From NCBI GenBank assembly GCA_965649765.1, contig OZ287754.1, forward strand, positions 35,898,001 through 35,962,000: a DNA stretch of 64,000 nt. Direction: 5' to 3'. The stretch's first letter is position 1. Every line of letters begins with the position of its first letter. The translations under genes and the position numbers were made by a program. The DNA is from Bispira polyomma (Eukaryota). Shown here piece by piece: positions 1 through 42,507 of the stretch. The notes below the pieces were generated by a model. It worked only from the letters and a program-made list of their open reading frames with translations, searched no databases and had not been told where the DNA came from.

Positions 1-372
1 CACATTTAGTTAGTACATACCCTGGTACACATTCAGTGTAGTACATACCCTGGTACACATTTAGTGTAATACATACCCTGGTACACATTCAGTGTGATAC
101 ATACCATGGTACACATACAGTGTATTACATACCCTGGTACACATTCAGTGTGATACATACCATGGTACACATACAGTGTAGTACATACCCTGGTACACAT
201 ACAGTGTAATACATACCCTGGTACACATTCAGTGTGGTACATACCATGGTACACATACAGTGTAGTACATACCCTGGTACCCATTCAGTGTGATACATAC
301 CATGGTACACATACAGTGTAGTACATACCCTGGTACACATACAGTGTAGTACATACCCTGGTACACATTCAC
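1..372. repeat. 28-bp minisatellite (GTACATACCCTGGTACACATTCAGTGTA), about 13 copies visible, overlapping the exon donor
   Basis: Direct periodicity of 28 (13, 41, 69...). Confidence 0.95.
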
Positions 373-474
373 ATTCCCAGTCCCCCTCCAAATCCACACA
401 GGTGCCGCCGTTCTGACACGTCACATTCTGTGTGATACATTCTTGCTCATTGGAACAGTTTTTCCCAATAAATC
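357..474 (-). CDS. Exon: EGF repeat 6 (FIGKNCSNEQEC...CQNGGTCVDLEGDWECECVPG); gene continues beyond the left edge
   Basis: ttacag| acceptor in phase 1; probable donor CAGG|GTATGT at 356. Confidence 0.85.
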
Positions 475-2891
475 CTGTAAAATACAGAAAAAAGACTTTG
501 TAACTGTTTGGTATAAAAGTGGATATTTTCACTTGAGTTTCAATGCTAATATTTTCACTAATAAGCATGGAAAGTGAAAATAAATTGCCAATGAAAGGCG
601 AAAATTTATGGTTATACTTTGAGTATAACGAGTGGTCAATAGTAAAGATTAATTTCAGTGAATTCCTTAGATAGTTTGTTGTGCCTTAAATAACATCATG
701 GATGTATGTCCACATTACTCCCAGGGTGCGGTTGATAGATGACAGAATAGTGCTAGACTAGACCGCATTAAGTCATTTACACTAGACCCGCTCCCCTCCC
801 ACCCACCTCAACTGAACAACACAAACAACAGTAGTGATTTTTTTAATCATTCATAAAAACCAATCATTACCCAAAATAACTGATAAAATACTTCTGAATT
901 TGTAGTTGTTTGTATAAACATTGTTATAAAATCTAAAAATTTAAAGATTTTACTGTTTAGTTAAATAATTTGCCAGTTATCGTAGCTTTAGTCTCTTGCT
1001 GTTGGATTAGTTGAGGCAGTGAATGATTTCCCCATTTTATTAGTTCAGGTAATATACTGATATATTCAATAAGCATCCCACACATATTCTGTATAGCAAC
1101 AAAGTGCTTGGTAATCATAGCAAACAAACAAACTTTGTGTTTTCCTTCACAACATTGCAGAATAACTAAGCTCTGTATAAGAGAATGGGGGATTGTTGGC
1201 TGTTTGTTTTAAAAACAGTTCTTGTTCCCAGAGAACACCAATAATTCATGAAGTTTAATGCATGACTTGGTATTTAAACATTAAGCATAATGGAATTAGT
1301 AGCTTTACATTTATAAATAGTCTTCCTAGTTTAATGAATATGTCAGAAAAGTACAGTTGCAACCAGAAACAGTTTCCTTTAAATTTATATTTCGAAAGCA
1401 GCACAAAATTCATATTACCCACACTTTTTGTCAACTTTCTATCTAAAGTAAAGTGAAATGACACTAAAACCGTGAAAATTCTGTTAGATAATACAGTACT
1501 ACATGCTTAATTAGGTGTACCGGTTTAGGTAACCTATTTTATATACAGTTCTGTATTGTACATCAAAACATTGAATGTCACAGCTGATGATGAAAAGTAT
1601 TATTTTAAATCCCTAGCAGAACAATAACCATAACAAGAATGAGTTTTATTTTTGGGGTATATTTTGCTGTCAAAAAGTGAATTTGATTCACACTAAAAGT
1701 TTAACCTTATATTTACCATATACATGTAAGTCAAAAAATGAATACTTATAAATGACAATAAATTCCTAAAATAATTGTAAATAAGTGAAATAATTCTAAT
1801 TTCATGTTGTATTGTTACGATGTTATGGTCACCAAAGAAAATCGAACCCTTAAAGGCCAGAAACAGGAATAAGTGTTGATTAGACACCGTCTTTGCTACA
1901 TTTTCTATGCATGTTTAAACTCATAATAAGCTTTTAAGTGGGATAGGTAATTACTATTTGATGAGAGCAATGACAGGCCATTCCTCTGTATAAAGATGTA
2001 GGGGGTCATCATGGGGAACACTCTATTTACCACATAATGGGCTGTGAATGATTTATTAGGATCTCCATGTGTCATAGACATTGTTATCATACCCAGTTAC
2101 CAGATACTTAAGTGTAATTTAGAAGTGAATATATTACTGTATTATTTCTACTTATTCAAAAGCTTCCTTAATATTGATATTTTATAATTGCAAGTGATAT
2201 TACACAAAACAAAATAAGGTATTTAAGGTGCTAACATCTATCTTAAAATATTTATTGATCACTAATTCTAAAAACTATTGTTATCGTTTTATGTCATTAC
2301 ATTGTACTGATTGAAAGTCCGTTATATTATTTTTAGAGAAAAACATTTAAAGTGATAAAGAAAAGCGAGGTATTTGAATTGTGGCACATATCTGAAATAT
2401 GTCATTGGATATTAACCTTACATGAAGTGGAGGGCGATAAATGGGCTTGTTGTAATTCAATGTACAAATTCTGTGTAAAAACATATTAATCCTCATGGTC
2501 CTTCGGCTAATGCTGATTCTGCATGTTATTTTAATATCAGAGGTGATTTAAAGTACTGTTCACTGTTTCAAACATGTTTTTGAAAGGCACTATAGGAAGG
2601 GCATAAACAATATATTATACCAAAGACATTTTCTTTGGAAATAATTAAAAACTACCATAATTTCAAATGTAACAATAACAACAATAAACACCATAATTTA
2701 TACAGCAACAATTGACAAATAATAGCATGTGATATAAATCCTCCGTTAGCCAAATATTTTGGGAGCTCAAGTTTTGTTTGGATAATAACAGATTTATGCA
2801 ATGGACATCATACAAAGGCAGTTTAGCATAAGACCCTTGTAATATCTAATCGTAAAAGATATATCTAAATATTCAGAGAGTTATTATAATT

Positions 2892-4738
2892 GGGTTGTGT
2901 CTATCCCTGTAAGTACTAACCTGTGTGACAGTCACAATGGTTGTCTTTAGGCCTGTAAGTACTAACCTGTGTGACAGTCACAATGGATGTATTTAGGTCT
3001 GTAAGCACTAACCTGTGTGACAGTCACAAGGGTTGTGTTTATCCCTGTAAGTACTAACCTGTCTGACAGTCACAATGGTTGTCTTTAGGCCTGTAAGTAC
3101 TAACCTGTCTGACAGTCACAATGGATGTCTTTAGGTCTGTAAGTACTAACCTGTCTGACAGTCACAATGGATGTCTTTAGGTCTGTGTGACAGTCACAAT
3201 GGATGTGTTTAGGTCTGTAAGTACTAACCTGTCTGACAGTCACAATGGAAGTCTTTAGGTCTGTAAGTACTAACCTGTCTGACAGTCACAATGGATGTCT
3301 TTAGGTCTGTAAGCACTAACCTGTGTGACAGTCACAAGGGTTGTGTTTATCCCTGTAAGTACTAACCTGTGTGACAGTCACAATGGTTGTCTTTAGGCCT
3401 GTAAGTACTAACCTGTGTGACAGTCACAATGGATGTATTTAGGTCTGTAAGTACTAACCTGTGTGACAGTCACAAGGGTTGTGTTTATCCCTGTAAGTAC
3501 TAACCTGTGTGACAGTTACAAGGGTTGTGTTTAGGCCTGTAAGTACTAACCTGTGTGACAGGCACAATGGTTGTCTTTAGGTCTGTAAGTACTAACCTGT
3601 TTGACAGTCACAATGGTTGTCTTTAGGTCTGTAAGTACTAACCAGTCACAAGGGTTGTGTTTATCCCTGTAAGTACTAACCTGTGTGACAGTCACAATGG
3701 TTGTCTTTAGGCCTGTAAGTACTAACCTGTCTGACAGTCACAATGGATGTATTTAGGTCTGTAAGCACTAACCTGTGTGACAGTCACAAGGGTTGTGTTT
3801 ATCCCTGTAAGTACTAACCTGTCTGACAGTCACAATGGTTGTCTTTAGGCCTGTAAGTACTAACCTGTCTGACAGTCACAATGGATGTCTTTAGGTCTGT
3901 AAGTACTAACCTGTCTGACAGTCACAATGGATGTCTTTAGGTCTGTGTGACAGTCCCAATGGATGTGTTTAGGTCTGTAAGTACTAACCTGTCTGACAGT
4001 CACAATGGATGTCTTTAGGTCTGTAAGTACTAACCTGTCTGACAGTCACAATGGATGTCTTTAGGTCTGTAAGCACTAACCTGTGTGACAGTTACAAGGG
4101 TTGTGTTTATCCCTGTAAGTACTAACCTGTGTGACAGTCACAATGGTTGTGTTTAGGCCTGTAAGTACAAACCTGTGTGACAGTCACAATGGATGTATTT
4201 AGGTCTGTAAGTACTAACCTGTGTGACAGTCACAAGGGTTGTGTTTATCCCTGTAAGTACTAACCTGTCTGACAGTCACAATGGTTGTCTTTAGGTCTGT
4301 AAGTACTAACTTGTGTGACAGTCACAATGGATGTATTTAGGTCTGTAAGTACTAACCTGTGTGACAGTCACAAGGGTTGTTTATCCCTGTAAGTACTAAC
4401 CTGTCTGACAGTCACAATGGTTGTCTTTAGGCCTGTAAGTACTAACCTGTTTGACAGTCACAAGGGTTGTCTTTAAGTCTGTAAGTACTAACCTGTCTGA
4501 CAGTCACAAGGGATGTCTTTAGGTCTGTAAGTACTAACCTGTCTGACAGTCACAAGGGATGTCTTTAGGTCGGTAAGTACTAACCTGTCTGACAGTTACA
4601 AGGGATGTGTTTAGGCCTGTAAGTACTAACCTGTCTGACAGTCACAATGGATGTATTTAGGTCTGTAAGTACGAACCTGTATGAGAGTCACAAGTGTTTT
4701 ATTTAGGTTTGTAAGTACTAACCTGTTTGACAGTCACA
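2892..4738. repeat. 46-bp minisatellite, about 40 copies, overlapping the donor of exon 4723-4833
   Basis: CTGTAAGTACTAACCTGT(G/C)TGACAGTCACAATGG.. period 46 (2907, 2953...). Confidence 0.97.
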
Positions 4739-4833
4739 CGTGTAATCATCATACACGGTCTGGTTGACATCACTACATGTCCCGTTCACACACGGATCAA
4801 AATAGCAGTCATCATAGAATTCACAGTGGAAAC
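4723..4833 (-). CDS. Exon: EGF repeat 5 (FHCEFYDDCYFDPCVNGTC...YTCDCQTG)
   Basis: tttag| and ACAG|GTTAGT; 111 bp, phase 1-1. Confidence 0.9.
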
Positions 4834-5049
4834 CTAAATATAGTAATAGTAATGACAATAGGAGGTTTAAGGTGCATAATCTTCTAAATCATGAGAGTAG
4901 GCAGATCCCAGTACATGGTCAATTGTACTCTACAAACTTTGTAAACAGTAGTTTAATATATATAACAAAGATTTACAAACATTCTGTTATCCAACAGATC
5001 TTCGCTCTTCCAAGGTCTTCACACAATAATGGTTCATCTTTTCATAAGC

Positions 5050-5242
5050 TAGGTTTACTTGTACTTGAGTACATGGGTTTACTCATGAGTACATGGGTTT
5101 ACTTGTACATGAGTACATGGGTTTACTCATGAGTACATGGGTTTACTTGTACATGAGTACATGGGTTTACTTGTACATGAATACATGGGTTCACTCATGA
5201 GTACAGGGGTTTACTTGTAAATGAGTACACTGAGTACACTTG
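5050..5242. repeat. 20/24-bp minisatellite GAGTACATGGGTTTACT(TGTA)CAT
   Basis: About 8 direct copies. Confidence 0.9.
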
Positions 5243-5949
5243 TAAGATATTATCAAGTACAAGTACAGAGGAACAGTGTAAAAATACCTGAGAAAATGTT
5301 TCTTTAAATTTTCAGTAAAAACTGTAGAAGGTACGGCATAAAATGAGGACAGATAATGTAAACCTACAGAGGTTATGTATCACCTAATGGGATTTTGAAT
5401 AACAGTACAGTGTGTTAGGAAAATGAGTTTTAAAAAGTAAACAAAACTGAAAACTAAATATTGAAAAGTGCTTTTTCTTCCACTTGTAAGATATTAATAA
5501 GCACAAAACTTTGATAAATAAAATATGACAGATTATAAAAACGTTTCGAAACTTCAACCAACACTAATTTAGACAAAAATAGCCAATCGCTTTTAGCCTA
5601 ATTTTGATGTGGCATATTGAGACTGAGAATAGAAAAGAGTTGTTTTGTAAATATTCAATCAGAAGAAAGATTTTGTCAGTTATGTTTTTTGAATTGTGTA
5701 GAAGATGAGTTAGATATTTCCTGTGCATTTGGCCTCTTTATAAAAACTAGTCTTAAATATACTGGTGCACATGAAAACCTCCACTACTAATGTAATAAAG
5801 CAAACTTTGGTGTGTTTTATGTGCATGAGTACACATGTAATACCCAGTCAATCCTAACTAAAACAATTATAAAGCGATAAAATAGATGAGAACATCCTCT
5901 GATATCCCAAAAGGGAAGGTCCAAGGGCAAGCAAAAAGTGGTTTCCCTG

Positions 5950-6760
5950 AGTAAGGCTATTAGACTTATTGAGTGAGTACAAATAAGGAGGTTGGTGAGT
6001 TTGCTAGGTTAAAACACAACAAGGTTGCATTTAAAAGGATATGCTCTTTTGCAGGTAGCCAGTGGAGTTTGTATAGGTATGGTGCGACATAGCTGAATTT
6101 GTCAACCTTGTACATAATATGGCGGAGGGTGTCTTGGACTCTCAGGAGCCTCGTTATATTGGCCTTGGTAATATCCTACAGCAGGGAATTGCAATAGTCT
6201 AACAAACTACTCATCATGACATTTGCCACCTGGACTGCAGTTTCAAGACTAATAAGCTGCATATTCGGCGCAGCTCGCATAAGTAGTAAAAGCAGGCCTG
6301 GCAGACACTGGATACATAATAACTGTAACAGTTGTCTTGGTTAAAGATAACACAAAGGTTGGGGAAAATAGTTTCAAACTGTCTCCAATAGCAATGTCAC
6401 CGATAGTAACACATTCAGATATGTCAGTGTTGGGTTTCAGTTTTACACTTCCCATCCATATGCCAACTCTTATGCTGAGGTCAAAGTTTATTGCATCTAG
6501 TGCAAAGTATAGTTGTGTGCATTAGTCAGCATACAAATGATAAGTGACATTAAACTGAGAGATTATAAGACTGAGAGGAGTGGTGTGCATGGTTAAGAGG
6601 AGAGGGCCCAATACTGAACATTGTGGGACACCATAAGGGAGTGGGAAAGCTTCTGAGATCCGCTCCATAATTTCAGAAACTCTTCCTTGACCTGTACCCA
6701 ATCCTTCCACTAAATGTTTTATATTCCTGGTGACAAACCAACCAACCAATGGACAGGGTT
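5950..6760 (-). mobile_element. Decayed L2/CR1-type LINE reverse transcriptase fragment
   Basis: YGVPQCSVLGPLL..YHLYAD, followed by degenerate 3' ORF2 sequence; stops and frameshifts. Confidence 0.8.
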
Positions 6761-7213
6761 AAACCATAACATGGCATGAGGCAATAAAGCTTCAAAAAGA
6801 AAAGAAAATGTTTGAACACGTGGTCTTTACAGAGACAGGTGGTCTTCTGTAGAGTTTCTCTTGGTGAATAATTTGATCAATTTGACTGATATTGTGGCCA
6901 GATGAGGAATACAATGGGCTAATGGTGCGAATTTTCTGTTTCGCAATCTAATCTCTGATGGCAGTGGATTAAAACATACGGCTTAATTGTATAAAAAAAT
7001 ACGTCAAGGCACTTGTCGTATAGGTCACTATTTAGTAAAAGCTCAAATATAGATTTCGGATTAACACCAATAAATTTGGCTGTCACAATATAAGTCAGGA
7101 GCATGTTAAAACATACTAAATACTTAATGTGAGCAATAATACACTGGTACCTGAGGCATAAAATGGCCAATCTACATTGGTCGAGTTGGTGCTAATAAGA
7201 CGTCAGTACTTAC

Positions 7214-7327
7214 CATTATACCCTGGTGGGCAGGTACAGTTGTACATATTGATGAAATCGTTACAGATAGCTCCATTCTCACAGTTGTCTACTTCACACT
7301 CATTAATGTCTATACTGCAGTTGTAAC
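7214..7327 (-). CDS. Exon: calcium-binding EGF repeat 4 (YNCSIDINECEVDNCENGAICNDFINMYNCTCPPGYNG)
   Basis: DINEC motif; ttccag| and |GTAAGT; 114 bp, phase 1-1. Confidence 0.92.
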
Positions 7328-8428
7328 CTGGAATAGACAAACAAACTGTCAATGAGGCACACACACCAATAGTCTAAGGCACAATACTAGTATTAATCTA
7401 ACACATATACAGACATTATACACACTAAACAACTTTAGAGAACATGTATATTATTTTGAATGAATTACATTTTCCAATATGTTTCCTTATTTTATAAAAA
7501 CAAGGAATACAAACATCTTTCTCTTTTGAAGAGTGTAACTTTAATGTTTTTCTAGAATTATCCCCATTTTGTGCTTTCATTGAAAAACGAATTCATTCAA
7601 AATATTGCTGATGTTTTGCTTTTTCTAGTCATGCCCAATACTTCATTATTGATTCTTCTTAGTATGTGAATTGTGTCACGTTTGTGAAGCATGTACTTTA
7701 AAAATACTACACATTTTAGTTACTATTTTACACACTGCTATATGCATTGTATGTCTCAAAATACCTAATAAAATGACACGTAAAATATATGAATTAGTAT
7801 ATGATTAAAATATATGTCATTCTTTATTTATTTCTACTCATGAAAATGTAAATATGTTATCTATAAATCGAGTTTAAAGGCACCCCAAAAAAGTTTCTCA
7901 GAAGCTCAAACACACATAACGTGGCTTTTAGCGATCGTCTTGTGCATTTTAATCAAAAACCTAATATACGACCAAACCAGGCACTGAAGCAGGTCATCAA
8001 CAATAAAACTAAGCACTAATTTCAGTTGCAGTTATCATCAAGCATAGACTCAAAGTACTATGTTAAAGTAGCAATTTTAAGTTAGATAAAACACTATTTC
8101 TCTATATTTGTATGTTTCAGTAATGGTGAAAAATTATTTTAAAAAGAAATAGCTGTTAGTAATTTTCCTATTACTTTCTCGTAGAATTTGAACGTCAGTT
8201 TTCAATGGTGGGAGAGTTTTAAAATTATATGAACAATAAATCAGTTGCACATTAAACCAATAAAATGCAGATGTAAAGTTTTTGAGAACCTCAACTCCCA
8301 CCAAATTAGATATGTGTCAGAGAGTAGTGCTTTTAAGAGGAACCCACAAACTCAAATAAAAATGTTCACCCGGTTACTTTACTTAATTTCTATCACTGTT
8401 TTTTCATAAGTTTGTTTAGTGTTGATAC

Positions 8429-8545
8429 CTTTATATCCAGGGACACAGTCACATGTAAAGTTATCGGCTGTTATGTCATCGAAACATGTTGCTCCATTTT
8501 CACACGGGTCATCTAGACAGTTGTCATAGTTCTCACAATGGGTCA
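8429..8545 (-). CDS. Exon: EGF repeat 3 (THCENYDNCLDDPCENGATC...CDCVPGYKG)
   Basis: ORF 8379..8594; ttctag| and |GTATCA; 117 bp, phase 1-1. Confidence 0.9.
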
Positions 8546-8548
8546 CTA

Positions 8549-8805
8549 GAAATGTACATACATTACATCTGGAGTATGTGAAATGTAGATACATTATATC
8601 TTAAGTATGTAAAATGTACACACATTATATATTGAGCATGTGAAATGTAGATACATTATATCTTAAGTATGTGAAATGTACATACATTATATCTTAAGTT
8701 TGTGAAATATACATATATTATATCTTAAGTTTGTGAAATGTACATGCATCATATCTTGAGTATGTGAAATGTACACACAATATATCTGTATGTGAAATGT
8801 ATACT
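8549..8805. repeat. 31-bp minisatellite abutting the acceptor of exon 8429-8545
   Basis: GAAATGTACATACATTATATCTTAAGTATGT, period 31, about 8 copies. Confidence 0.9.
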
Positions 8806-9359
8806 AATGTATACTAATACAAATAATGTATACTATACTTCAATTTAAATTCTAAACCTGGCATTTCTACTCAATAGCTATAATGCACCTTACTACGCAA
8901 TAGCTATAATGCACCTTACTACGTAATAGCTATAATGCACTTTACTAATAATAAAATAGCAAAACATGATAAATTTACTACTTGGAATACTATATAAGTG
9001 GTTATTTTCAAACAGATTTTGTTTTATTTTTTCTATTTTTACAAGACCATCGGAGGCGCAAAAGTTTAGTGAAAATTAAATCACTATACATTTCCTGATA
9101 ACTTCTTAGGAATATCAGCTCCAGCGAGCAAGAATTATAGCTAATTGGGCATTAGTGGAGTATAATTGAGTATTAGGGCAATCACTAAATAAAGTCAGAC
9201 TAAACTCTATTGTATTAAAGAACATTACTGTAGTTTAATGTATTGGTTATGAAAAATTTCACTTTTTTAAATAGATTTCGTATTGTAAACAGATATTCAC
9301 AATAGATTTTGTGTGGAGAAATGTAGATTGACCGAGGATATGAAAGCCTGTGTACTGAC

Positions 9360-9488
9360 AGTTGTATCCAGGAAGGCAGACACAGGTGTAATTACTGAGG
9401 CCACCAATACCATCCACACACTCATCAGTATTGTTAATGACACAAGGAGTCTCCAGACATTCGTCAATGTTCAGTTCACACCGGTCAC
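9360..9488 (-). CDS. Exon: calcium-binding EGF repeat 2 ([15 protein letters not shown]...CVCLPGYN)
   Basis: NIDEC motif; aatag| and |GTCAGT; 129 bp, phase 1-1. Confidence 0.9.
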
Positions 9489-9864
9489 CTATTGAAAAAC
9501 AAAAACAGATGACTAGTCAACTGAGGGATGATGGACCTTGGTTTTACTATGAATTGTATGACAGTTTGATATAATTGTACAATAAAACTGCATGTGTGAC
9601 CAGGCCAAAAGGGTTATCAACTGTGCAATGTACACAAGTTTTAAAGAATTAATCCCAACAAAAGGAAGATTTTATTCAAAAATATATACTTTATGGTGTC
9701 TGATACACGAGAACAATATCAGACATTTGACTGCTTACAGTGGAGTTGGGTTCAGATTTGTCTGTGTCTTTGGGATTGGTCTTCTGCTTGGTCTCAACAC
9801 ACAACCTTGTAGACTGGTAATACATGAACTCATAAGTGGCTATAGCCTATGTAATGAGCTTTAC

Positions 9865-9960
9865 CTTCCCAGCCAGGAGCTGTTAGGTTACAGTGACAGA
9901 GCCAGCCATCAGGTTCATCACTGCATCTACCATTGTTCTCACATGGATCCATGGAACAGG
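9865..9960 (-). CDS. Exon: EGF repeat 1 (CSMDPCENNGRCSDEPDGWLCHCNLTAPGWEG)
   Basis: EGF cysteine pattern; ttcag| and |GTAAAG; 96 bp, phase 1-1. Confidence 0.9.
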
Positions 9961-10738
9961 CTGAAGTTAAAAGCACGCTTTTCATAGTTTATGTTCTTCT
10001 ACTGTTACCCATAACCAAAACTTCAAATAGATTTATCTTTTATGTAAACATTAACAGGTGGAGGAAACCACTGAATATTATTTGGGAAGATGTATGTATT
10101 GTAAAGAAGTGGCTTTTAGGAAATCTACTGCAAACTTTTCCAGATACATGCCTAGATGTTTACCCATGATCGCAGATGTGGAAGCGCAGTGTTACTCATC
10201 AACAATTGATGCCATCCAACAAATGGTAACACTGGAAATTATTAATGAAATTTAGATAAGAGTATACTTCTTAAATTATAATACAAGATAGTCTGAAGCT
10301 AAAGTTATACCCTAAAGTATCACTACGCTACGATGTTTGTCCAGTTATCTTTGATATTAGTACTTTAACCAACTTAGAAATAATATTATCATTTGTCGTT
10401 AAATTTAGTCCAAACCCCTTAAATTCCCACAAAAGCTACATTTATTTTTTTGATTTATAACATTACATTTTAGTTTGATAATTGTATCATATTTTCACCA
10501 TTTCTTACATTGGTAGTAAACACAGATGACTTGATGTTATACCTTTTTACCACAAGGTCAACGGCATGGCGACCTAATATGACATTCGTACACAAGGGAA
10601 CACATAAGACCAAAGATGCTTGAAAATGTTATTTCCACAAAACTGTTGTCTGTATTTCTACTATTATTAGGCAAAATGATTGCTATCTTTCTATGAAAAT
10701 TACTTGAGTACTATCACTTTTTAATACTACATACTTAC

Positions 10739-10786
10739 GGACTGGAAAACATGTTAGTTCATCGGTAGCAACATTTCTGATAACAG
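10739..10786 (-). CDS. 48-bp linker exon (VIRNVATDELTCFPV)
   Basis: tttcag| and |GTAAGT, open frame, phase 1-1, fits between neighbouring exons. Confidence 0.7.
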
Positions 10787-11349
10787 CTGAAATAAAAATG
10801 AAAAGACACACCATAAATAATAACCAAACCAAAGACATTTAGATATTTTCTGAGTGACATATCAATTTATCTCTAAGTAAGAAGTTAGTAAACCACATAA
10901 AAATTATATGTAGCACTTCAGTAACCTCCACCTGATAATAACAGGCATAGTTAACACTTATTAATATGCTAGTACACTGTTTTCCAAAAGTATTTTTTTA
11001 AATGTGAAATAAAATGTCACCAATACCAATTTGATGAAGATATATATACGCACCAGAACTTGCCTCTAGGACTGCCATCCATTGATTCATAAACACATGT
11101 ACATTCATTTACACATAATTTTTGTTTCCATATCAGGCATGTACTATGTTTTAACAATTTCTTACTGTTCAAAACCTGTTTTAGATTAAAAAATATTCGA
11201 CTTGTATACACTGGAACTAAAATAAATTCCAGTCTTTTGTTTAGGCACAATTTCCAGTAGACAGGTTAATATTAATTTTACCGAAATGTTTGAATATTAG
11301 AGGCTCTAAAGTACCTAATACAGAAGTCCTCATTTGGAATACAAGAAAT

Positions 11350-12137
11350 TAATATTTGCACGTACAAAGCCAGATTGGCTTGATTTTGCTGACGACATTA
11401 CACTATTATCTAGCAGACATGAAGACATACAAGAAAAGACAGACAGAGTCAAAGAATGTGCTGTTAAAAGTAGGACTAAAAATAAACGAAGGAAGAACAA
11501 GGCAATGAGAATCAATACAAAATTGGACAAAACACTAGAAATAGACAACAATAAAATTGAAGATGTCAGCGAGTTTACATATCTTAGAGCCAAAATAAGC
11601 ACAAATGGAGGAGCCAGTGAAGATATTAAAACTAACCAGGTGAAAGGCAGAAACGCATTTGCAGGAATAAGTCGAGTTTGGAAATCCAACATCTACAAGA
11701 AAGCAACCAAGATCTATAAAAACAAAATCTTACTATATGGATCAGAATACTGGAAACAAAAGCAGATGTAAAGACATGCAAAACATTCCAAAATAGATGT
11801 CTCAAATGAATTCTAAAAATATACTGACCCAACAAAATTACCAACACCTCTTAGAAAAAACAAAAGCAGACTCAATAGAAATTAGATAGAAACACATAGG
11901 CCACATAGAAGAGAATATGATATGAAAGTGACAATGACATGGGCCCCCCCAAAAAAAGACAAAAGAAAGAGCCAAAGAAAAAAGGTAGACCCAGAAAAAC
12001 ATGAAGGAGGACAGTCGAAAGAGAGAGAAGAGAGATGGGTGGTCCCAGAGGCTGTAGCCAAAGACAGACCGAGGTGGAAAAGAGCGCTTCTCGCCTTATG
12101 CACTAATATGAGAAAAGAGGAAAAGTAAGTAAATAAA
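11350..12137 (+). mobile_element. Decayed RTE-clade LINE 3' fragment
   Basis: LDFADDITLLS..HEDIQEKT, LLYGSEYW, terminal AKDRPRWKRALLALC and short GTAA/TAAA tail. Confidence 0.8.
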
Positions 12138-12194
12138 CAAGGCCACTTGTCAGTGCTCTGCCTAATAAGGACTACTATAGACATGATGGCTTAC

Positions 12195-12377
12195 TTGATG
12201 GACATGTTGTTGCTGTGGCTGTGCAGTCTTTAAGGGAGGAGTCAAATGTGTATCCAGATCTACAGACCTTCCTCTGGCCAGATCCAGAGTGGCAGTCCCA
12301 GTACAAGTTACATGCATCACAAGAGTGGAAGAAGTCAGTAGTGCCTGATTTGTCTTCACACTTCACCACACAAGTAG
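12195..12377 (-). CDS. Exon: chitin-binding type-2 (CBM14/peritrophin-A-like) domain
   Basis: CEDK..CDACNLYWDC..KVCRSGYTFD...DC...TC spacing; tccag| and |GTAAGC; 183 bp, phase 1-1. Confidence 0.85.
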
Positions 12378-12973
12378 CTGGATATTAAAACATGCACACT
12401 GATTGCTTAAGTTGACATGTAAGAACAACTAGAGAGACACTTGATTGGGAGAATGTCAAGTGCCACAGTGTCAAATAGTGAATAATCCACTAGCTGGATG
12501 TACCCCAAATTGTACGGGATACTTTCGGCCACCTTGTTCCATCCCTCCACCAAACTACATGTATATATATATGGCATATGTATAGCTTGATAGTTACCAG
12601 AATGATAAATATACTCTCAATTATATATAGTAGCAAATGCTTAGAAGCACAAGTTTCTATGGTGATTGTTAAACTTGTCAAAAAGGTAATTTAATTAGAA
12701 ATATTGTTTCTTCAAATCTTTTTGTATGTCCTGATATGTGTGTGTAATATGTGGTGATTTATCCAAAGAAGTATAGGCTTTATATGAATTTGAATCCCTT
12801 GAATTTTTTAATTCTTAGAAAGTTTAAAAAGAAAATTTTAATCCGACTAAATCCTCTATTTTGATAAATTTAGGTCACCTATTTAAAGACTTAATGGTTG
12901 TTAACAGATGCATACACTCAATGACGAGGGTTGGTTATAGAACCTAAACATGGTAAACCAGTTCTAGGACCAG

Positions 12974-13080
12974 GGGCCGTATTTACGAAGGGGCTTAGCC
13001 AGGTCTTAGACTTAAATCTAGCACAAAAGTATACTGATTTAAGCCTAAGACCTGGCTAAGCCCCTTCGTGAATACGGCCC
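12974..13080. mobile_element. PIF/Harbinger-type MITE, 107 bp
   Basis: About 45-bp TIRs (GGGCCGTATTTACGAAGGGGCTTAGCCAGGTCTTAG.. / ..CTAAGACCTGGCTAAGCCCCTTCGTGAATACGGCCC) flanked by a 3-bp CAG duplication. Confidence 0.88.
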
Positions 13081-13273
13081 CAGGAAATATTGGAACATAT
13101 AGCATTAGCTGTGATATTACATCGCTTTCATGCATATATTCTTATTGATCCAGTCAGTTCCAGTAAAACCATGGCATGTTCAATTACTGTATCTATCAAC
13201 AAAGTAGCATTTTAAACAAAATCATTGTCTATATATATAAGGTTAACTCAGAGTCTGGCCTTTTCATTCTTAC

Positions 13274-13421
13274 ATGTAGACTGTGCTGTGTACAAGTCTT
13301 TAAAATAAGAAGCGGGCTTGACTTCTTCCCAGAAGATGAACTCATCGTAGCTGCCTTCACCCGTTGTCGTGGCACTGGTCGATTTACCAAAAAAGAAGTC
13401 GTCTTGCAGAGGTACAAAGGA
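13274..13421 (-). CDS. Exon: LamG domain end (FFFG...GSYDEFIFWE)
   Basis: ttccag| and |GTAAGA, 148 bp, phase 0 to 1; G..DE..FW motif. Confidence 0.85.
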
Positions 13422-13871
13422 CTGGAAAACAAAAAAAAGTGATTGAGTATTGGAGGAATTACATTTCCAAGTCAACATATTATGGTTCTACATAGTTTCG
13501 ATTGTGGAAAGGTTCAAGCTAAATTTTTATGTAATACTGTATATTATACTATATATACTATTTGTTTACAGGGCATACTACATGTTTTAATAATGAATGC
13601 AGAAAATGATTCATCCGGTGACGGATAAAAAAAAAAAAAGATCTTCAGAACTGAGAAGAAAAGTATAATTGTTCATAGGGATTCATACAAATATATCACA
13701 ATCTATCAATGTAACAAATTCGCATTGTTCTATTTTTCACTATAGGGATAGGTTTACCCATAATGCACATGCTTGCTATTTATTTGATATGGAAGTTTAG
13801 TATTTGTACTATTTATTTATACTATACCTTACTAGGTGCAACAATATCAAACAGAGTAATGTAGAACTTAC

Positions 13872-13982
13872 TGTTCTGTTCACTGGTTCAAGCAAGCTGT
13901 CAATTAGGGACCCTTTCTCATATAAGTTCAGTGTACTTCTGTCCCAGGTGACACCAACAAAATAACCACCATTGTTTTTAAC
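13872..13982 (-). CDS. Exon: LamG domain middle (YFVGVTWDRSTLNLYEKG)
   Basis: acag| and |GTAAGT, 111 bp, phase 0-0; VTW..L.LY..G LamG motif. Confidence 0.85.
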
Positions 13983-14219
13983 CTGTGTTAACAGCAAGTA
14001 CAATACCTATATGATCCATACGTACACAAATAAGGATAAAGTGCTTGCAGAAAACCAACCAAAAATGTGGCTACATCAAACAATTTTGATACATGATGAA
14101 TTTAAAAAAAAAGGTTAAATATCAAGCTGAGGTTACATTAAAATATTTTCAGATGTATATATCATCCCAAGATATCTAAGCACATGGATATGTTCATTAT
14201 AATGTTTTTATCATGTCGG

Positions 14220-15882
14220 ATAAAATTTATCCTCAAAACTATACATGTACATCTTTACACTGTTTGTATCACTATGTGTATAATACATGTACATCGTTAC
14301 ACTGTTAGTCTGACTATGTGTACAATACATGTACATCCTTATTTTGTTTGTATCACTATGTATATAATGCACCCTTACCCTGTTTGACTACCTATTTATA
14401 TAGCACATGTACACCCTTACACTGTTTGACTACCTATTTATATAATACATGTACACCCTTACCCTGTTTGACTACCTATTTATATAATACATGTACACCC
14501 TTACCCTGTTTGACTACCTATTTATATAATACATGTACACCCTTACACTGTTTGACTACCTATTTATATAATACATGTACACCCTTACCCTGTTTGACTA
14601 CCTATTTATATAATACATGTACACCCTTACACTGTTTGACTACCTATTTATATAATACATGTACACCCTTACCCTGCTTGACTACCTACATGTACACCCT
14701 TACACTGTTTGACTACCTATTTAAATAATACATGTACACCCTCACCCTGTTTGTCTGACTATGTATATAATACATGCACTTCCTTACACTGTTTGACTAC
14801 CTATTTATATAATACATGTACACCCTTACCCTGTTTGACTACCTATTTATATAATACATGTACACCCTTACACTGTTTGACTACCTATTTATATAATACA
14901 TGTACACACTCACCCTGTTTGACTACCTACTTATATAATACATGTACACCCTCACCCTGTTTGTCTGACTATGTATATAATACATGTACATCCTTACCCT
15001 GTTTGACTACTTATGTATATAATACATGTACACCCTTACACAGTGTTCTATCTATGCATTAATACATGTACACCCTCTTACACAGTTTGACTAGCTATGT
15101 ATATAATACATGTACACCCTTACACAGTGTGCTATCTATGCATATAATACATGTACATCCTTACACAGTTTGACTACTTATGTATATAATACATGTACAC
15201 CCTTACACAGTTTAACTACATATGTATATAATACATGTACACCCTTACCCTGTTTGACTACCTATGTATATAATACATGAACACCCTTACCCTGTTTGAC
15301 TACCTATTTATATAATACATGTACACCCTCACACAGTTTAACTACTTATGTATATAATATATGTACACCCTTACACAGTTTAACTACATATGTATATAAT
15401 ACATGTACACCCTTACCCTGTTTGACTACCTATGTATATAATACATGAACACCCTTACCCTGTTTGACTACCTATTTATATAATACATGTACACCCTTAC
15501 ACAGTTTAACTACTTATGTATATAATATATGTACACCCTTACACAGTTTAACTACATATGTATATAATACATGTACACCCTTACCCTGTTTGACTACCTA
15601 TGTATATAATACATGAACACCCTTACCCTGTTTGACTACCTATTTATATAATACATGTACACCCTTACACAGTTTAACTACTTATGTATATAATATATGT
15701 ACACCCTCACACAGTGTGCTATCTATGCATATAATACATGTACACCCTCACACAGTGTGCTATCTATGCATATAATACATGTACATCCTTACACAGTTTG
15801 ACTACCTATGTATATAATACATGTACACCCTTACAGTGTGCTATCTATGCATATAATACATGTACACCCTTACCCTGGTTGA
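14220..15882. repeat. 42-bp minisatellite, about 39 copies, overlapping the donor of exon 15874-16274
   Basis: TATAATACATGTACACCCTTACCCTGTTTGACTACCTATTTA; 14-aa periodic spurious ORFs. Confidence 0.97.
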
Positions 15883-16274
15883 TTCTGTATCCTGTACCTC
15901 CCATTCCTGTTGTTCTGTTGTCACCCTAACTTTCAGTACTGACCCAATGATGGCGATTGACATGCCATAAGACGTACTGGTCTGTCCCCCGTTGGAGAGG
16001 TAGTACTTGTCCGTAGAGATGTCAGGACTTAGCTTTAAGGCTAGATGCAAACTAAAGCCAGATGCGCAGACGTCAGGAGAGTGCAGGCACCTGGATCTGT
16101 CATCAGATGTAAATTCTAGATCGATATAGTCGGAGGAACTAAGCTGCAGGGCTGATTCTGTGATAACAGATACTTTTGCTGCTGAGGTGCCTCCATTTGT
16201 CGATACAATGTTGGCACTTAAGGTGCTATTGATGAGTGCGTCATTGACAAAATCAAAGGGGATGTATTCTTTTG
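15874..16274 (-). CDS. Exon: LamG/pentraxin (ConA-like) domain, N-terminal part
   Basis: ORF 15841..16320; CLHSPDVCASGFSLHLALK..YYLSNGGQ..SYG; acceptor atacag|, donor CAGG|GTAAGG; 401 bp, phase 1 to 0. Confidence 0.85.
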
Positions 16275-18440: not shown

Positions 18441-19077
18441 CTGGACACAGACTATGAATAATATATATTGAATATATGGAGGAAATCAATGTACTTTACT
18501 GCAAACTTGCACTCCTAATTAACAGACACTAATGTATTTACAAATATATCCTTATATATTAATTATTTAATCTTAACACTTATTAAGTATAAATGTTATC
18601 CTATAATGTAATAACTTTCATAACATTTATATTAACTGCCTAAATAAACATACAGTATATAATTTACAGTAATATGCGGGGCTTGTAGTTTAGTTAGGTG
18701 CATGGTTAAATGTGGTCATAGTTCCCAATACATAGATTTAATTTTAACCCAGAGGTCAATGTGGTAAAATAGATGTGGTAAAGTGGATAGAGGTTAGCAA
18801 AGTTGAAGGAAAGGTCAAAACTGGAAGGTTAGTGAGGTAAATTAATACAGAAGTTGAAAACAGTATAAAGACTATTATATTTTATGGTAAAATTTTAAAT
18901 TTTAATTAAAATTTTGAAAGTCCTCATTGTGAATTAACACACAATGACTGGCCAAAATAAACAAAACATTATAACATTGAAATATTATCAAAAGTTTACA
19001 ATATATAAAACCTGGAACAATGTGTTACTGTGCTTATCAAAATGTTAGTGTGCAAAATGAACATGCAGTAGGCAAGC

Positions 19078-22000
19078 TTGTGGCATCAGTTTTGCTACGG
19101 CGTAATTATGCCATCGCCAGTGAGGGCCAGCTCATCACAGTGGTTTGCTATCAACATTTAACACTAAGAGGACTATGCTAGTTCATACATAATAGGTGGC
19201 ATGAACTGCAGCAGTGGAATGCGGCTTTAAAGTTATTCAACATTCCCTGTTTTTACCTGACCTTTCATCCTCACACTCAATTATGAATACTGTGGAAGCT
19301 ATTCTTAAGTGATAATGACGTTATTGGGCACTTGACACCTTTTAAGAGGAACAATACACTAAGTGCATGCTGAGTTGATTCATTAATATGTTCTCTGTAA
19401 TAAGCGTCACGCACCATTGACTCTGTTATAAAACTTTCCTTAATCCAGCCACGAGCTAGAATGTGACATATTTTCCACAGAACTAACCCACCAGTTATGA
19501 CAAACAAGGTGTCCAAATACTGATTGTAAGATATAATATATATACTAATAAGATACAAGTAGCTTTTACATTTTCTGTATTCTACAGTCACCATATCATA
19601 TGAAGCACCAATAAAATTTAAAAAGCCAAAATAAGGTACCTTGAATTTTAAAATTTTATGCTATTTTTCTTTCCAAAAAATGAGATGACGTCGCCCAATT
19701 ATTTCATCATTGAAACAATTGGATCAAGTGAGAACACACTTATGCAATCAATTAAAAATAATTCACTGTATTTCCTTGATAAGATCTGAACACTTATTTA
19801 GAAAGGATGAAAATGTCAAAACTACTCAGGTCAGTATAGTTTATGTAAAGGAATGCATAAAGTTCTTTTATAATACCAGGAAACTTCTAAATATAATTGC
19901 ATTAAGTTATCTTATAATACCAGGTAACTCCTGATAAAGTTGCATTAGGTTCTCTTACAATACCAGGTAATTCCTGATATAGTTGCATTAAGTTCTTTTA
20001 CAATGCCAGGTAACTCCTGATATAATTGTATTAAGTTCTCTTATAATACCAGGTAACTCCTGATATAGTTGCATTAGGTTCTCTTATAATACCAGGTAAT
20101 TCCTGATATAGTTGCATTAAGTTCTTTTACAATACCAGGTAATTCCTGATATAGTTGCATTAACTTCTTTTACAATACCAGGTAATTCCTGATATAGTTG
20201 CATTAGGTTCTCTTATAATACCAGGTAACTCCTGATATAGTTGCATTACGTTTTGATTTGGCTTTGGCAATGTTTCAAAAATTTTAAATATTTTTAAAAT
20301 TTCTTTTACAAATGTAAATACATACAAAGGTATAAAAATAAATGTCCCAAACTAGCATCACACTTCATTACCTCTGGAAGGTCAACACCCACTCATAATC
20401 ATCATACTGACTATACAGATCAGATCACACGTTATGACCTTGAGGGTAAAAAATCAATGAGTATTCACATGAACATTTTTGGCCTTAAAGGTTACAAGGA
20501 TACATTTCATAGTGACTGTAGAAGTCACTGCCAACCTTAGTTGCCATTTAGTCGCAGAAATTAACCCCCTTATAGTATTCATTAGTTGCATACTTGCTTA
20601 TTTGTGAGCAGCTAATCAGAAACTATAGTTATAAAGGTTTTCCCGCTCTTTCTGTAAATCTGCCACAAATTAAATAGATGACAGAGTGATAACATATAAA
20701 TATTTGTTCCCAACCCTCCACACATTTTCTAACAAAATCTGTTATAGTAACTGTTGTGAGGTTAGTTAACCTCGTATTTTGGGTCAGTTGACCCCTTTGT
20801 GTACATACTATGTGAGGCAATGTTTTAAAAAATTTAAATATTTTAAAATTTTCTTGTACAAATGTAAATACATACAAAGATGTGAAAATAAATATTCCAA
20901 ACTAGCATCAGACTTCATTACCTCTGCAAGGTCAACACCCACTTATAATCATTATACTGACTATACAGGTCAGATCACACGTTATGACGTCAACGTTATG
21001 AGTATTCACCGGAACATTTTTTACCTTAAAGGTCACAAGGATACATTTCATAGCGACTGTACACACCAAATGTATGTGCACTTCACTTTTTTAAACATAA
21101 GAAATATTTCTTCAAGGAGGTTATGTTTTCAGAGGAAACGACTTGGCTTTGAGGTTTTATTCTGTACATATTTGGTTACATTATATAATACAAATATATA
21201 ATAAAAAGTATCTTAAATTTCAATGAACAAACTACACCCTTTCTGCACAGCAGTGTTAACAAATTTATCATTGGGATAGTCCACCATATAAGAACATGGT
21301 GTAGGGTAAACACCAACTTACTTCTCCCACCTGAGTGTTAAGAGTGAAGAAGCCTTCACAGATGAGCTACAAAATTACAATTTGTAAATCAAGATATTTG
21401 GAAAAATGAAAGAGGATGGGGGAGGGTACATTTTTGTCGTTATGATTTATTATTATTTTTTATTATGCATTTTTAACACGTTTTATTGATACTAGGCGAC
21501 TTCTAAAGCACAACAGAAAAATCAGTGATCCAATCGGAGTTAGGGAGTTAGCCACAGTTATAGCAGTGTCCAGAAACAGGTGGTTTCGGATTCTTTTGAT
21601 GTCATGAATGTGGTAATAGCAGGAGCAATGATTTTAGGAATTTAGTGTCTTTCTTGTTTTCAATGAGAATGAATTGAGTTTTGTCAGGAGTTTATTACAA
21701 TTTGAAGTAATTCATCCACCCCTAGAAAGCAGACAGACATCACTATTTTTATTTGCATTTTGAGGAGAGATAGGCTTGAGTGTCATCAGCATACATGTGG
21801 TGTTTTATATTATGATTATTGATGACAGTGCTGAGAGGATGTGTATAGCGGATGAAAATTAGAGGCCCAAGAACAGATCCCTGGGGTACTTCGTATGCTA
21901 GGTTAATGGAAGATGATAAGGGATCATCTAGTTTAATTCTTTGTGCTCTAAGAGTGAGGTAGGATCTGATCCAATAAAGGGCCGTGCCTTTTGTTCCGAA

Positions 22001-25000
22001 CCACTGCTTGAGAGTGTCATAAAGTAGATCGTGATCAATAGTGTCGAATGCTGCTGAAAGATCTAAAATTGTGACAGCCACTGTTTCTGATGTTTTGTCT
22101 GTTAAGGTGGTCAGAAAATTGTTGTGCCACAGCTTTCTGGATGACCTTAGAGACAAAGCTGAGATTTGACACTGGTCAATAGTTTTGAGCTGGTTCTTAT
22201 CAAGCCCTGGTTTTTTTTAGCAAAGAAGTAACATTTGCAGTTTTAAAACAGGTGGAGAAAATACCATCCTGAAGATTATGTGTTGGTTATGGCTGTGATT
22301 AAAATGTCAAGGCATTGATTTAAAATATTGGCTGGGATAGGATCTAGTGTACAAGATTTAATAGGAGAGAATTTCATGAGTTTAAGAACATCCATGGAAA
22401 AGTCTATGGAAATGAAATAGGTTAGAAACCTTATAGCCTGGGATTAGAGGGAAGAAATGAGACATTTTTAAAAACATTCACGAATGTTGCTGATTTTATC
22501 AATGAAAAATTTGCCAAATTTATCTGCTAAAAATGTAAGACAGTGATTTATGGGGAGATTTTTGATGGAGAATTTTATTTATGGAGGCCCAAAACCTTTT
22601 AGGACTCCTTTTTGGCACTAGATATCAGCTTGTTGCACTTGTTCCTGGCGATATAGTAACAGCTTCTATCAAATGAGGATTTGGTATGACGCCATTGATG
22701 CTCAAGTTGGCGTTTGAGTCTTTTAGCCTCTGTGATGGCGGCATTGATCTATTCATGGTGGTTTGGGGGGAAGGGTTTTAGATAACCAAGGAGCGTGTTT
22801 ATCAAGGATAGTTGAAAGGCTATGATTGCATTGTGAGCTGATGCTGTCAGCGTTTTTGCACAGATTTTTTATGAGATTTGATGCATGGATGTTGTCTCTA
22901 AATTTGTCAATATTGATTATTCTGATATTTTGGTATTTTATCACGCAAGGGTATTGTGAGGCCGGTACTGGCAAATTTAGATAGGCAAAGGTTGTGGCAT
23001 CAGTTTTGCTACGGCGTAATTATGCCATCGCCAGTGAGGGCCAGCTCATCACAGTGGTTTGCTATCAACATTTAACACTAAGAGGACTATGCTAGTTCAT
23101 ACATAATAGGTGGCATGAACTGCAGCAGTGGAATGCGGCTTTAAAGTTATTCAACATTCCCTGTTTTTACCTGACCTTTCATCCTCACACTCAATTATGA
23201 ATACTGTGGAAGCTATTCTTAAGTGATAATGACGTTATTGGGCACTTGACACCTTTTAAGAGGAACAATACACTAAGTGCATGCTGAGTTGATTCATTAA
23301 TATGTTCTCTGTAATAAGCGTCACGCACCATTGACTCTGTTATAAAACTTTCCTTAATCCAGCCACGAGCTAGAATGTGACATATTTTCCACAGAACTAA
23401 CCCACCAGTTATGACAAACAAGGTGTCCAAATACTGATTGTAAGATATAATATATATACTAATAAGATACAAGTAGCTTTTACATTTTCTGTATTCTACA
23501 GTCACCATATCATATGAAGCACCAATAAAATTTAAAAAGCCAAAATAAGGTACCTTGAATTTTAAAATTTTATGCTATTTTTCTTTCCAAAAAATGAGAT
23601 GACGTCGCCCAATTATTTCATCATTGAAACAATTGGATCAAGTGAGAACACACTTATGCAATCAATTAAAAATAATTCACTGTATTTCCTTGATAAGATC
23701 TGAACACTTATTTAGAAAGGATGAAAATGTCAAAACTACTCAGGTCAGTATAGTTTATGTAAAGGAATGCATAAAGTTCTTTTATAATACCAGGAAACTT
23801 CTAAATATAATTGCATTAAGTTATCTTATAATACCAGGTAACTCCTGATAAAGTTGCATTAGGTTCTCTTACAATACCAGGTAATTCCTGATATAGTTGC
23901 ATTAAGTTCTTTTACAATGCCAGGTAACTCCTGATATAATTGTATTAAGTTCTCTTATAATACCAGGTAACTCCTGATATAGTTGCATTAGGTTCTCTTA
24001 TAATACCAGGTAATTCCTGATATAGTTGCATTAAGTTCTTTTACAATACCAGGTAATTCCTGATATAGTTGCATTAACTTCTTTTACAATACCAGGTAAT
24101 TCCTGATATAGTTGCATTAGGTTCTCTTATAATACCAGGTAACTCCTGATATAGTTGCATTACGTTTTGATTTGGCTTTGGCAATGTTTCAAAAATTTTA
24201 AATATTTTTAAAATTTCTTTTACAAATGTAAATACATACAAAGGTATAAAAATAAATGTCCCAAACTAGCATCACACTTCATTACCTCTGGAAGGTCAAC
24301 ACCCACTCATAATCATCATACTGACTATACAGATCAGATCACACGTTATGACCTTGAGGGTAAAAAATCAATGAGTATTCACATGAACATTTTTGGCCTT
24401 AAAGGTTACAAGGATACATTTCATAGTGACTGTAGAAGTCACTGCCAACCTTAGTTGCCATTTAGTCGCAGAAATTAACCCCCTTATAGTATTCATTAGT
24501 TGCATACTTGCTTATTTGTGAGCAGCTAATCAGAAACTATAGTTATAAAGGTTTTCCCGCTCTTTCTGTAAATCTGCCACAAATTAAATAGATGACAGAG
24601 TGATAACATATAAATATTTGTTCCCAACCCTCCACACATTTTCTAACAAAATCTGTTATAGTAACTGTTGTGAGGTTAGTTAACCTCGTATTTTGGGTCA
24701 GTTGACCCCTTTGTGTACATACTATGTGAGGCAATGTTTTAAAAAATTTAAATATTTTAAAATTTTCTTGTACAAATGTAAATACATACAAAGATGTGAA
24801 AATAAATATTCCAAACTAGCATCAGACTTCATTACCTCTGCAAGGTCAACACCCACTTATAATCATTATACTGACTATACAGGTCAGATCACACGTTATG
24901 ACGTCAACGTTATGAGTATTCACCGGAACATTTTTTACCTTAAAGGTCACAAGGATACATTTCATAGCGACTGTACACACCAAATGTATGTGCACTTCAC

Positions 25001-33784: not shown

Positions 33785-33989
33785 CAGTTCTCCTTGGTGA
33801 AATGGGAAGGTCAAGGTTATGATAAGTTTCAATTTAAGTAGTATGAGATTTCAATTAATAAAATAATTCTAGGTTTGAGGTATTTATTTTCTGTACATTG
33901 TTAATCAGATATGTATGTACAAGTAGGGATAAAATAGGAATTTTTTTTTAAAATTTACAATTTTTAAAAACACCCAAGCCAAACTAAAA

Positions 33990-34945
33990 CTAGGGTATAG
34001 AGGAGGCAAAGGTGAGAAGAACAGCAGAAATGGCATCAGAATTATGGTGAAGATAGGACCATACTGCAGATGACCTCCAAAGGCCATGGGCTATTATGTT
34101 TTGAAGGGATACATTGTGATTGAAGGCAAATGTAGCCCCTGACCTTCTAAAAGTGTGAAATGTGTGTTCCTTAAGTGAAATACCTATGTGTGTAAGGACT
34201 GTGGCCAAGGCTTAACGGACATGTGATTCTATAACTGGGAAATAAGGTGGGGATGAAGTAAAAAAGTGGGGCCTCTGGCGAAAGTGGCCGAGATTGTAGT
34301 AGCTTTCTAAGGGCCTCTACTGGGCACAATGTTATATTTTTAATGAAGGGATTTGTAGAACATGGAATTGGGACCTATTTTGAAGGTTCTTTGCCCACTT
34401 CAAGATGAGGTGGGCGCCAGGGTGGCCAAACACAATGTCCTTTCTTAAAAAGTGACGTGTTGGGTCAAATTTTGACCTTGAGTGTGGAGCTATATTCGAG
34501 ATTCGGAGAAATCCGAAGAAAGCCATTATAAAAATTGCCCTGTATAGTAAAGGGTCATTGAGGATGTCACATGCTTTGAAAATAAGTATCAAATGGAAAA
34601 TCCCCTTTGGGGAGGGAGTGAAAGGTGAGGTATGTGTTAGGCTTCTGGTGAATAGAGCCACAGTGTTATTCTGTAATATATTAATGTCCCAGTGGAATTT
34701 AGCAGGCATGTGTTTTATGGAAGCTATGTCATTGTTCACCATGTTCACAGATGAACCTGTCTGTACCAAATACTCTAGAAAAGAGATGAAAGAGTGAGTA
34801 GTGATGGTTTGTACTCCAGCATAGCAGTTAAAAGCAATGAAAGTTCTAAACTGGTTCTTGTAAGTTGCTGTGGTCTTAGGACGAAGGGCACTGTTAATTC
34901 TCTGCCATGCTGATGCTGTGAAATTCTGAGTGACGTGGTTTTCAC
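33990..34945 (-). pseudogene. A1 tyrosine recombinase (frameshifted)
   Basis: FFGFLRISN, HTFRRSGAT, HGLW, WSY catalytic motifs. Confidence 0.92.
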
Positions 34946-34951
34946 CTGTAA

Positions 34952-39615: not shown

Positions 39616-40066
39616 GCACCAGGGCTGACAACAGTGACCACTGACAGAGTACACAACAAGTTTCATTATTGGTATAAAGGTAGTAACGAAAGTAATTATA
39701 AGGTTGACAGTAATAAAAATAATTTTGGAAAAAATTGTAATAGGAACAATTGTGAGCATTATGTTTCTGAACAAAAAATGGTTTATTTAAAGAGAAATGA
39801 CATAAAACAGACAGAGTTCAAATAACAGAACTCTGGTTAATGAGACGTTAAGTGAAAATACAAATGGGTATATAACAGGTTCAGATAACAGAACCTTAGT
39901 TGAAGAAACACTGAATAGAGACACAAGGCTGTGGGTTGATAATAGTAATCAGGCTTCAGGCAATGATCATACGAATAGTAATACAAGTAATGGGTACAGT
40001 GAAACTGATAACACTGTTTTAGGATGTGATAATAAGAAGCTAAACATCAGGGGTAATGATGGTAAA

Positions 40067-42502: not shown

Positions 42503-42507
42503 TTTAG

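Follow-up and report, generated by a model that had tools for sequence, protein, structure and literature searches.

Minisatellite arrays that copy exon-intron junctions in an EGF gene and in the genome that carries it

The 64-kb stretch of DNA analyzed here (the window; C7:35.90-35.96 Mb of a 1.035-Gb genome) holds, on the minus strand, a gene predicted to encode an EGF-repeat protein, and the introns of this gene carry tandem arrays that begin inside exons and reiterate the exon end together with the splice site. These arrays are "mirage" minisatellites, a type of repeat already known from amphioxus and from the human F7 gene. Twenty exons of the gene were placed: 11 coding exons within the window (357-16274), where the first-pass annotation had counted 12, and 9 further to the left of it. 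The open frame extends for 1009 codons with a sole, terminal stop, and 19 of 19 introns have GT-AG ends and consistent phases. Pfam EGF and CBM_14 matches were found on 6 of the 10 exons scanned, and the product is predicted to be a single-pass membrane protein with many EGF repeats and a CBM_14 domain.

The first of the placed exons (15874..16274), with weak similarity to what we take to be a LamG-like region, ends in the donor CAGG|GTAAGG at 15874. It is followed in the gene model by coding exons at 13872..13982 and 13274..13421, by the exon of the CBM_14 chitin-binding domain at 12195..12377 (Pfam E 2e-4, just below the curated cut-off), and by a 48-nt exon at 10739..10786. EGF exons were placed by Pfam and the gene model at 9865..9960, 9360..9488, 8429..8545, and 7214..7327. 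The exon at 4723..4833 was assigned as EGF-like from its cysteine pattern, with no Pfam match, and ends in the donor CAG|GTTAGT at 4723; the leftmost EGF exon (357..474, Pfam) has the phase-2 donor CAGG|GTATGT at 357. All of these exons lie on the minus strand. A candidate exon at 10232-10120 was ruled out by stops in every frame. An HMMER search with the first exon gave 32 weak matches, all to uncharacterised proteins, and a word-based homologue search with the same exon gave no match. The 5' end of the gene was not placed because tblastn with the 32 matched proteins returned no exon upstream of 16274. A short interspersed element of extremely high copy number (summed depth 1e5-1e6) has three insertions in the introns of the gene (L002 ~880-1120, 3140-3350, and 6300-6530), and an apparently intronless frame on the plus strand, read by eye as resembling a G-protein-coupled receptor (GPCR), faces its 3' end (locus L003 ~6130-7400).

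The arrays of the window were found with Tandem Repeats Finder (TRF). Three of them, all on the minus strand, copy a donor. The 42-bp array (14241..15882, ~39.6 copies) begins 9 nt inside the exon that ends at 15874. The 46-bp array (2906..4738, ~40 copies) begins 16 nt inside the exon ending at 4723 and is organized in higher-order blocks of 138 bp and ~760 bp. The 28-bp array (1..371 and on to -1048, ~51 copies) begins 14 nt inside the exon ending at 357. The first-pass annotation had described these three as copying an exon end plus the 5' splice site with units unrelated between junctions, and both statements were borne out; the units of the window arrays are mutually dissimilar on inspection. 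Its figure of about 13-40 decoy donors per intron agrees with the 42- and 46-mers but is too low for the 28-mer, which was counted as 13 copies because the window edge cuts the array. The GT dinucleotide is intact in 36 of 37, 35 of 35, and 48 of 50 aligned copies of the 42-, 46-, and 28-mers, respectively. The G preceding GT is found in just 15 of the 37 copies of the 42-mer, so many of these copies are weaker than the consensus that had been quoted for them.

A fourth array, with a 31-bp unit and 8.3 copies (8549..8801, minus strand), had been assigned to an acceptor. It does abut the acceptor TAG (8548-8546), but it stops 3 nt before the exon, holds neither the acceptor AG nor exon sequence, and falls outside the definition of a mirage. 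Two arrays away from junctions had passed without comment: a 24-mer (5052..5244, 8.5 copies, ~220 nt from an acceptor) and a 26-mer (8867..8947, 3.1 copies), neither with an assigned strand. Left of the window, a 31-bp array on the minus strand (-1446 to -1087) copies an acceptor with 14 exon nt per unit and occupies the other end of the intron that contains the 28-mer; a 64-mer copies most of the end of the transmembrane exon plus its donor, and a 66-mer, judged by eye, fades out shortly before an acceptor. Five of the seven arrays in the first 11 introns reach a junction (P = 6e-5 if arrays are placed at random), an excess over chance that had been correctly anticipated. With 5 of its 38 junctions copied, compared with 63 of 906 elsewhere (P = 0.12), the EGF gene is nonetheless typical for its genome and unexceptional in junction arrays. 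Shared variants beyond those of shuffled units, that is, tree-like units, were detected in 3 of 4 of its arrays. Contigs from three short-read runs of one study (at most two samples, possibly including the source sample), which behave as genomic DNA, extend through the introns but are interrupted at the arrays.

The genome was sampled blind to repeats with 57 genes chosen by Pfam matches (19 myosin loci and 38 kinesin loci); two near-identical myosin paralogues and a few very long kinesin loci were left out. A profile-based spliced aligner located the exons, and 453 of 496 introns, those with both flanks scoring at least 15 bits, were kept. With an array defined by a period of 10-200 and at least 3 copies, 59 of 177 arrays were found on junctions, and the expected numbers were 11.8 pooled, 14.0 within the gene, and 21.1 within the same intron, the strictest null. 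The enrichment at splice sites for which the first-pass annotation had proposed a genome-wide check is thus real. Judged from the sequence itself, the 453 introns have 45 copied donors and 18 copied acceptors (P = 0.0009 for the difference), unevenly spread over 28 of the 57 genes; ~7% of the sampled exon borders carry arrays, corresponding to ~10% of donors and 4% of acceptors. The arrays are locus-specific, with 57 of the 59 giving no BLAST match at other sampled loci. The unit length is 28-64 bp in the EGF gene and has a median of 52 bp in the sample.

Seeding was separated from growth by comparing arrays with two-copy duplications at periods of at least 25, after 48 multi-locus arrays had been set aside. 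Arrays of at least 3 copies were found at 42 donors and 17 acceptors, where the intron-interior rate predicts 0.38 on each side, whereas two-copy duplications were found at 1 donor and 0 acceptors, against 1.0 expected. The donor contrast between the two classes is significant (Fisher P = 8e-7). Detection was equal, since 50 of 60 duplications planted at donors and 47 of 60 planted in interiors were recovered, and a count made with TRF concurs (two-copy cases: 2 donor, 4 acceptor, 29 interior). It is the growth of arrays, and not their seeding, that is biased to junctions. The proposal that amplification is seeded at exon-intron boundaries is not supported by these counts, in which two-copy duplications are no commoner at donors than in intron interiors. 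Nor is it supported by the position of the junction within the unit, which is uniform (Kolmogorov-Smirnov P = 0.13), or by the exon-adjacent copies, which are no closer in sequence to the exon than the others. A fixed cut position relative to the junction and re-seeding from the exon are unsupported for the same reasons. At P <= 0.01, 17 of 22 arrays had units related in a tree-like way; the arrays have therefore grown repeatedly and not in one burst, and a one-step birth of many copies is ruled out. The differences between exon and array fall at codon positions 1, 2, and 3 in 14, 6, and 28 cases, respectively. They are mostly at the third position, and therefore the exon-side copy is the constrained one. 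The junction arrays are not older than those far from junctions (median match 86% vs 78%, P = 0.03), and a greater age as the source of their excess is unsupported.

The bias is not confined to splice sites. Single-locus arrays that contain no splice site were found at 41, 48, 21, 16, 7.5, 11, 8, and 4 per 100 kb of unique sequence in bins running from 0-25 nt to >1600 nt from the exon, and their density in the 50 nt next to an exon is 5-10-fold that of deep intron sequence. Of 391 donor-like motifs lying inside introns, 13 are arrayed, which is the background level, compared with 42 of 299 real donors; the donor motif alone is thus unsupported as the target. Stop codons were examined in 90 of the 153 listed GPCR matches, namely those with long open frames, which are intronless. 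Three of the 90 stop codons are spanned by arrays, against 0.36 expected (P = 0.006), and no array was found inside the coding sequence of these 90 frames. The three arrays, with units of 50, 64, and 49 bp at C6:17.74 Mb (L186), C1:102.11 Mb (L249), and C7:59.30 Mb (L234), copy the last 41-47 coding nt and the stop codon. A further GPCR locus (L200) has a two-copy duplication of its stop codon. No start codon was duplicated in the 90 frames, a count that is uninformative because the starts are only guessed.

The comparison with known systems is drawn from the available parts of the papers cited. Amphioxus mirages have been described in Adh3, the globins BflGb6 and BflGb9, troponin C, and PGBD5, with units of 10-160 bp (PMC3087553, PMC3902484), and their mechanism is called unclear in the globin paper (PMC3087553). 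As in amphioxus, the tandem unit straddles a boundary between exon and intron, and the array is bordered by the genuine exon (the 42-, 46-, 28-, and 64-mers at donors and the left 31-mer at an acceptor). Donors and acceptors are both affected, several arrays can occur in one gene, and the units are of minisatellite size and locus-specific, with GT or AG in many but not all copies. Concerted turnover within arrays is likewise shared, as judged from the tree-like units in the sample and in the EGF gene. Unlike amphioxus, the host groups with annelids. The available amphioxus accounts are of single genes, whereas the present data come from a blind sample of 453 introns and add the two-copy contrast, the distance gradient, and the stop codons; splicing outcome and polymorphism were tested in amphioxus, whereas the arrays here are known from genomic sequence alone. 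The intact open frame and the codon-position pattern lend indirect support to normal splicing in the present genome. In a tree of Myosin ID, built from a set without any named mollusc, the host falls with Ridgeia, Capitella, and Paralvinella (support 1.0). Of 28 named species, Capitella has the KIF17 most similar to that of the host (87.5%), and Branchiostoma reaches 79-80%. The host is a spiralian and probably an annelid.

Human variable number tandem repeats (VNTRs) that span junctions include the 37-bp repeat of F7 IVS7 and those listed for CBS IVS13, 6-16, LMNB2, and PDGF, and in F7 the most upstream donor was demonstrated to be the one used (PMC1557585). The first unit of these VNTRs spans the exon-intron boundary and the donor is reiterated, as it is here. 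The human cases concern a handful of genes, in contrast to ~10% of donors in this genome, and of the two it is the human system in which use of the first donor was demonstrated. Human minisatellites have been described as by-products of localised recombination (PMC2599865). The present arrays resemble them in probably growing by repeated exchange and, when position is taken alone, in being commoner toward chromosome ends, and differ from those driven by hotspots in showing neither polarity nor GC bias. Variable internal tandem repeats at exon-intron boundaries of human segmental-duplication genes (PMC2812944) are also boundary minisatellites able to create or shift introns, but they are confined to young paralogs, whereas ordinary single-copy genes carry the arrays here. 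In the open-licence literature, no genome-scale count and no annelid case of boundary-copying minisatellites were found. In the present genome the bias lies in long arrays and not in two-copy duplications, and it extends to some stop codons.

The stop-codon arrays and the bias toward long arrays rather than two-copy duplications point to recombination near coding sequence, and not splicing, as the likely driver. We therefore propose, with about an even chance of being correct, that unequal recombination, acting repeatedly and mostly beside coding sequence, expands mirage minisatellites, and that selection filters the resulting arrays. Small tandem duplications would arise at a similar rate everywhere in genes, as was seen for surviving two-copy duplications, and those touching a coding edge or lying no more than ~100 nt from it would expand by repeated sub-duplication, in line with the enrichment and the tree-like units. 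Recombination would be the engine and the exon its anchor or initiation site. Selection would remove arrays within coding sequence and spare those at donors, at stop codons or, less often, at acceptors, which is the pattern observed; the first donor and the first stop would win. The exon-side copy would remain under coding constraint, in agreement with the codon positions, and the arrays are likely tolerated since the exon-nearest copy would be the one used. A bolder claim is that in this lineage minisatellites grow in runaway fashion at coding edges throughout the genome, whether or not the edge is spliced, so that touching duplications almost always expand, with exons anchoring or initiating recombination; we offer both parts of it together and tentatively, and are more inclined to doubt them than to accept them.

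Several results weigh against this proposal. No identity gradient was found along 23 arrays (0.872/0.874/0.869, an indirect measure from one haplotype), and there is no AT-to-GC bias (16 vs 21 in exons, 16 vs 14 in introns), which leaves GC-biased conversion unsupported; the absence of polarity and of GC bias counts against a hotspot of the human type. The stop-codon result rests on three cases, and the array at L234 is ambiguous, with a donor-like GTG|GTATGT 8 nt before the stop; with two cases P = 0.05. Copied junctions increase toward chromosome ends (rho -0.36, P = 0.006), but position is non-significant when fitted jointly with the observed/expected (o/e) CpG ratio (t = -1.6), and the EGF gene itself, mid-chromosome and CpG-poor (o/e 0.31), runs contrary to both genome trends. 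Two-copy stages might also be scarce because seeding is rapid and is then almost certainly followed by expansion. Finally, donors are arrayed more often than stops (9.9% vs 3.3%, Fisher P = 0.04), and the donors that carry arrays exceed the average in strength (4.8 vs 3.85, P = 0.004), both of which are expected if splicing drives the growth. A selection filter also predicts these two results, because first-donor scanning is known in F7 (PMC1557585).

A rival is growth coupled to splicing or transcription, in which bound spliceosomes, pausing, or R-loops would provoke breaks or slippage at donors and every further donor copy would strengthen the effect. This reading transfers to growth the cause that the first-pass annotation had suggested for seeding, and we consider it unlikely. 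The preference for donors over acceptors and stops and for strong donors is consistent with it, as is the retention of the decoy GT, in which G is changed in 1 of 40 consensus units and T in 0 of 40. The density of splice-site-less arrays near exons, the two clean stop-codon arrays, and the uniform register of the junction argue against it. An R-loop signature is likewise unsupported, with no G-skew above the donor background (0.126 vs 0.146; non-copying arrays 31 G-rich vs 28 C-rich). Junction arrays are also rarest in CpG-depleted genes (7/304 vs 37/322 at high CpG o/e), and CpG-depleted invertebrate genes are the broadly expressed ones (gene-body methylation). A bias of retention would have arrays form everywhere and indels erase the interior ones, while those touching an exon are shielded and kept alike by the constrained copy. 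Multi-locus repeats make up 3% of the sequence beside exons and 50% of that deep in introns, so intron interiors do turn over, and the gradient near exon edges fits a shield. The junction arrays are not older, however, two-copy duplications enjoy little or no shielding, and the effect required is tens of fold, and we regard this explanation as distinctly improbable.

We give little credence to an effect of base composition or of a splice-site or exon motif (AGGT, GTAC, higher GC). Units have 41% GC against an intron background of 35%, and GTAC and ACCT/AGGT are enriched 2-3-fold, but interior donor-like motifs are duplicated at background and the GC of unique intron sequence is flat with distance while array density drops tenfold. 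It is very improbable that the arrays are selected for a function such as alternative donors, nonsense-decay switches, or intron creation. The decoy GT and AG are mostly intact, and human cases that use the next one or two pseudo-sites are cited in PMC1557585. Against this, the unit lengths of donor arrays modulo 3 (14/15/20) show no frame preference, splice positions are about as diverged as other positions of the unit, and the arrays are scattered over unrelated genes; selective silencing of the decoy sites is unsupported. Chance or an assembly artefact would suit the EGF gene taken alone, which is not above the genome rate, but we attach practically no weight to it: 0 of 100,000 simulations reached the observed junction count under the pooled, within-gene, or same-intron null, 59 exceeds the 40.6 expected even when the intron target is reduced fourfold (P = 3e-4), and units differ by 6-26% with shared variants.

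With ~10% of donors and 4% of acceptors affected, the genome offers natural experiments by the thousand. The arrays are informative on what turns a duplication into a minisatellite, on how the spliceosome chooses among identical sites, and on intron gain by boundary duplication. Their value is that seeding can be told apart from growth by test, and splice sites from coding edges; the EGF gene is a typical example. If the coding-edge claim were true, mirages would be a fossil map of fine-scale recombination and would keep in reserve extra splice sites by the thousand, from which introns could be gained and exons could slide.

Further observations were made at the sampled loci. Arrays with units of 139-170 bp recur across many introns of the sample, and a mobile element is probably their carrier. 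Myosin genes at C6:84.23, C10:19.43, and C8:39.71 Mb are among those packed with arrays (12-17 single-locus arrays), and those that we take to be non-muscle and muscle myosin II-like genes have no junction arrays. In four well-aligned acceptor arrays the working acceptor is TAG and the copies have CAG, with one array reversed; the numbers are small. Three myosin loci on separate chromosomes (C8:1.22, C11:4.18, and C13:27.30 Mb) share profile coordinates and scores, which suggests recent duplications.

Elsewhere in the window, positions 19069-30822 are occupied by three copies of a 3.9-kb unit with 99.95-99.97% identity, either a very recent amplification or an assembly effect. Each copy contains a decayed reverse-transcriptase-like frame and a 43-bp array with CAG|GTAA on the plus strand. 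Several retrotransposon-like elements are found at ~33800-50000 and 58000-63000, with frames that are presumably reverse-transcriptase-like and recombinase-like. Two of the retrotransposon-like copies, at 33785-37973 and 44757-49135, are ~97% identical.

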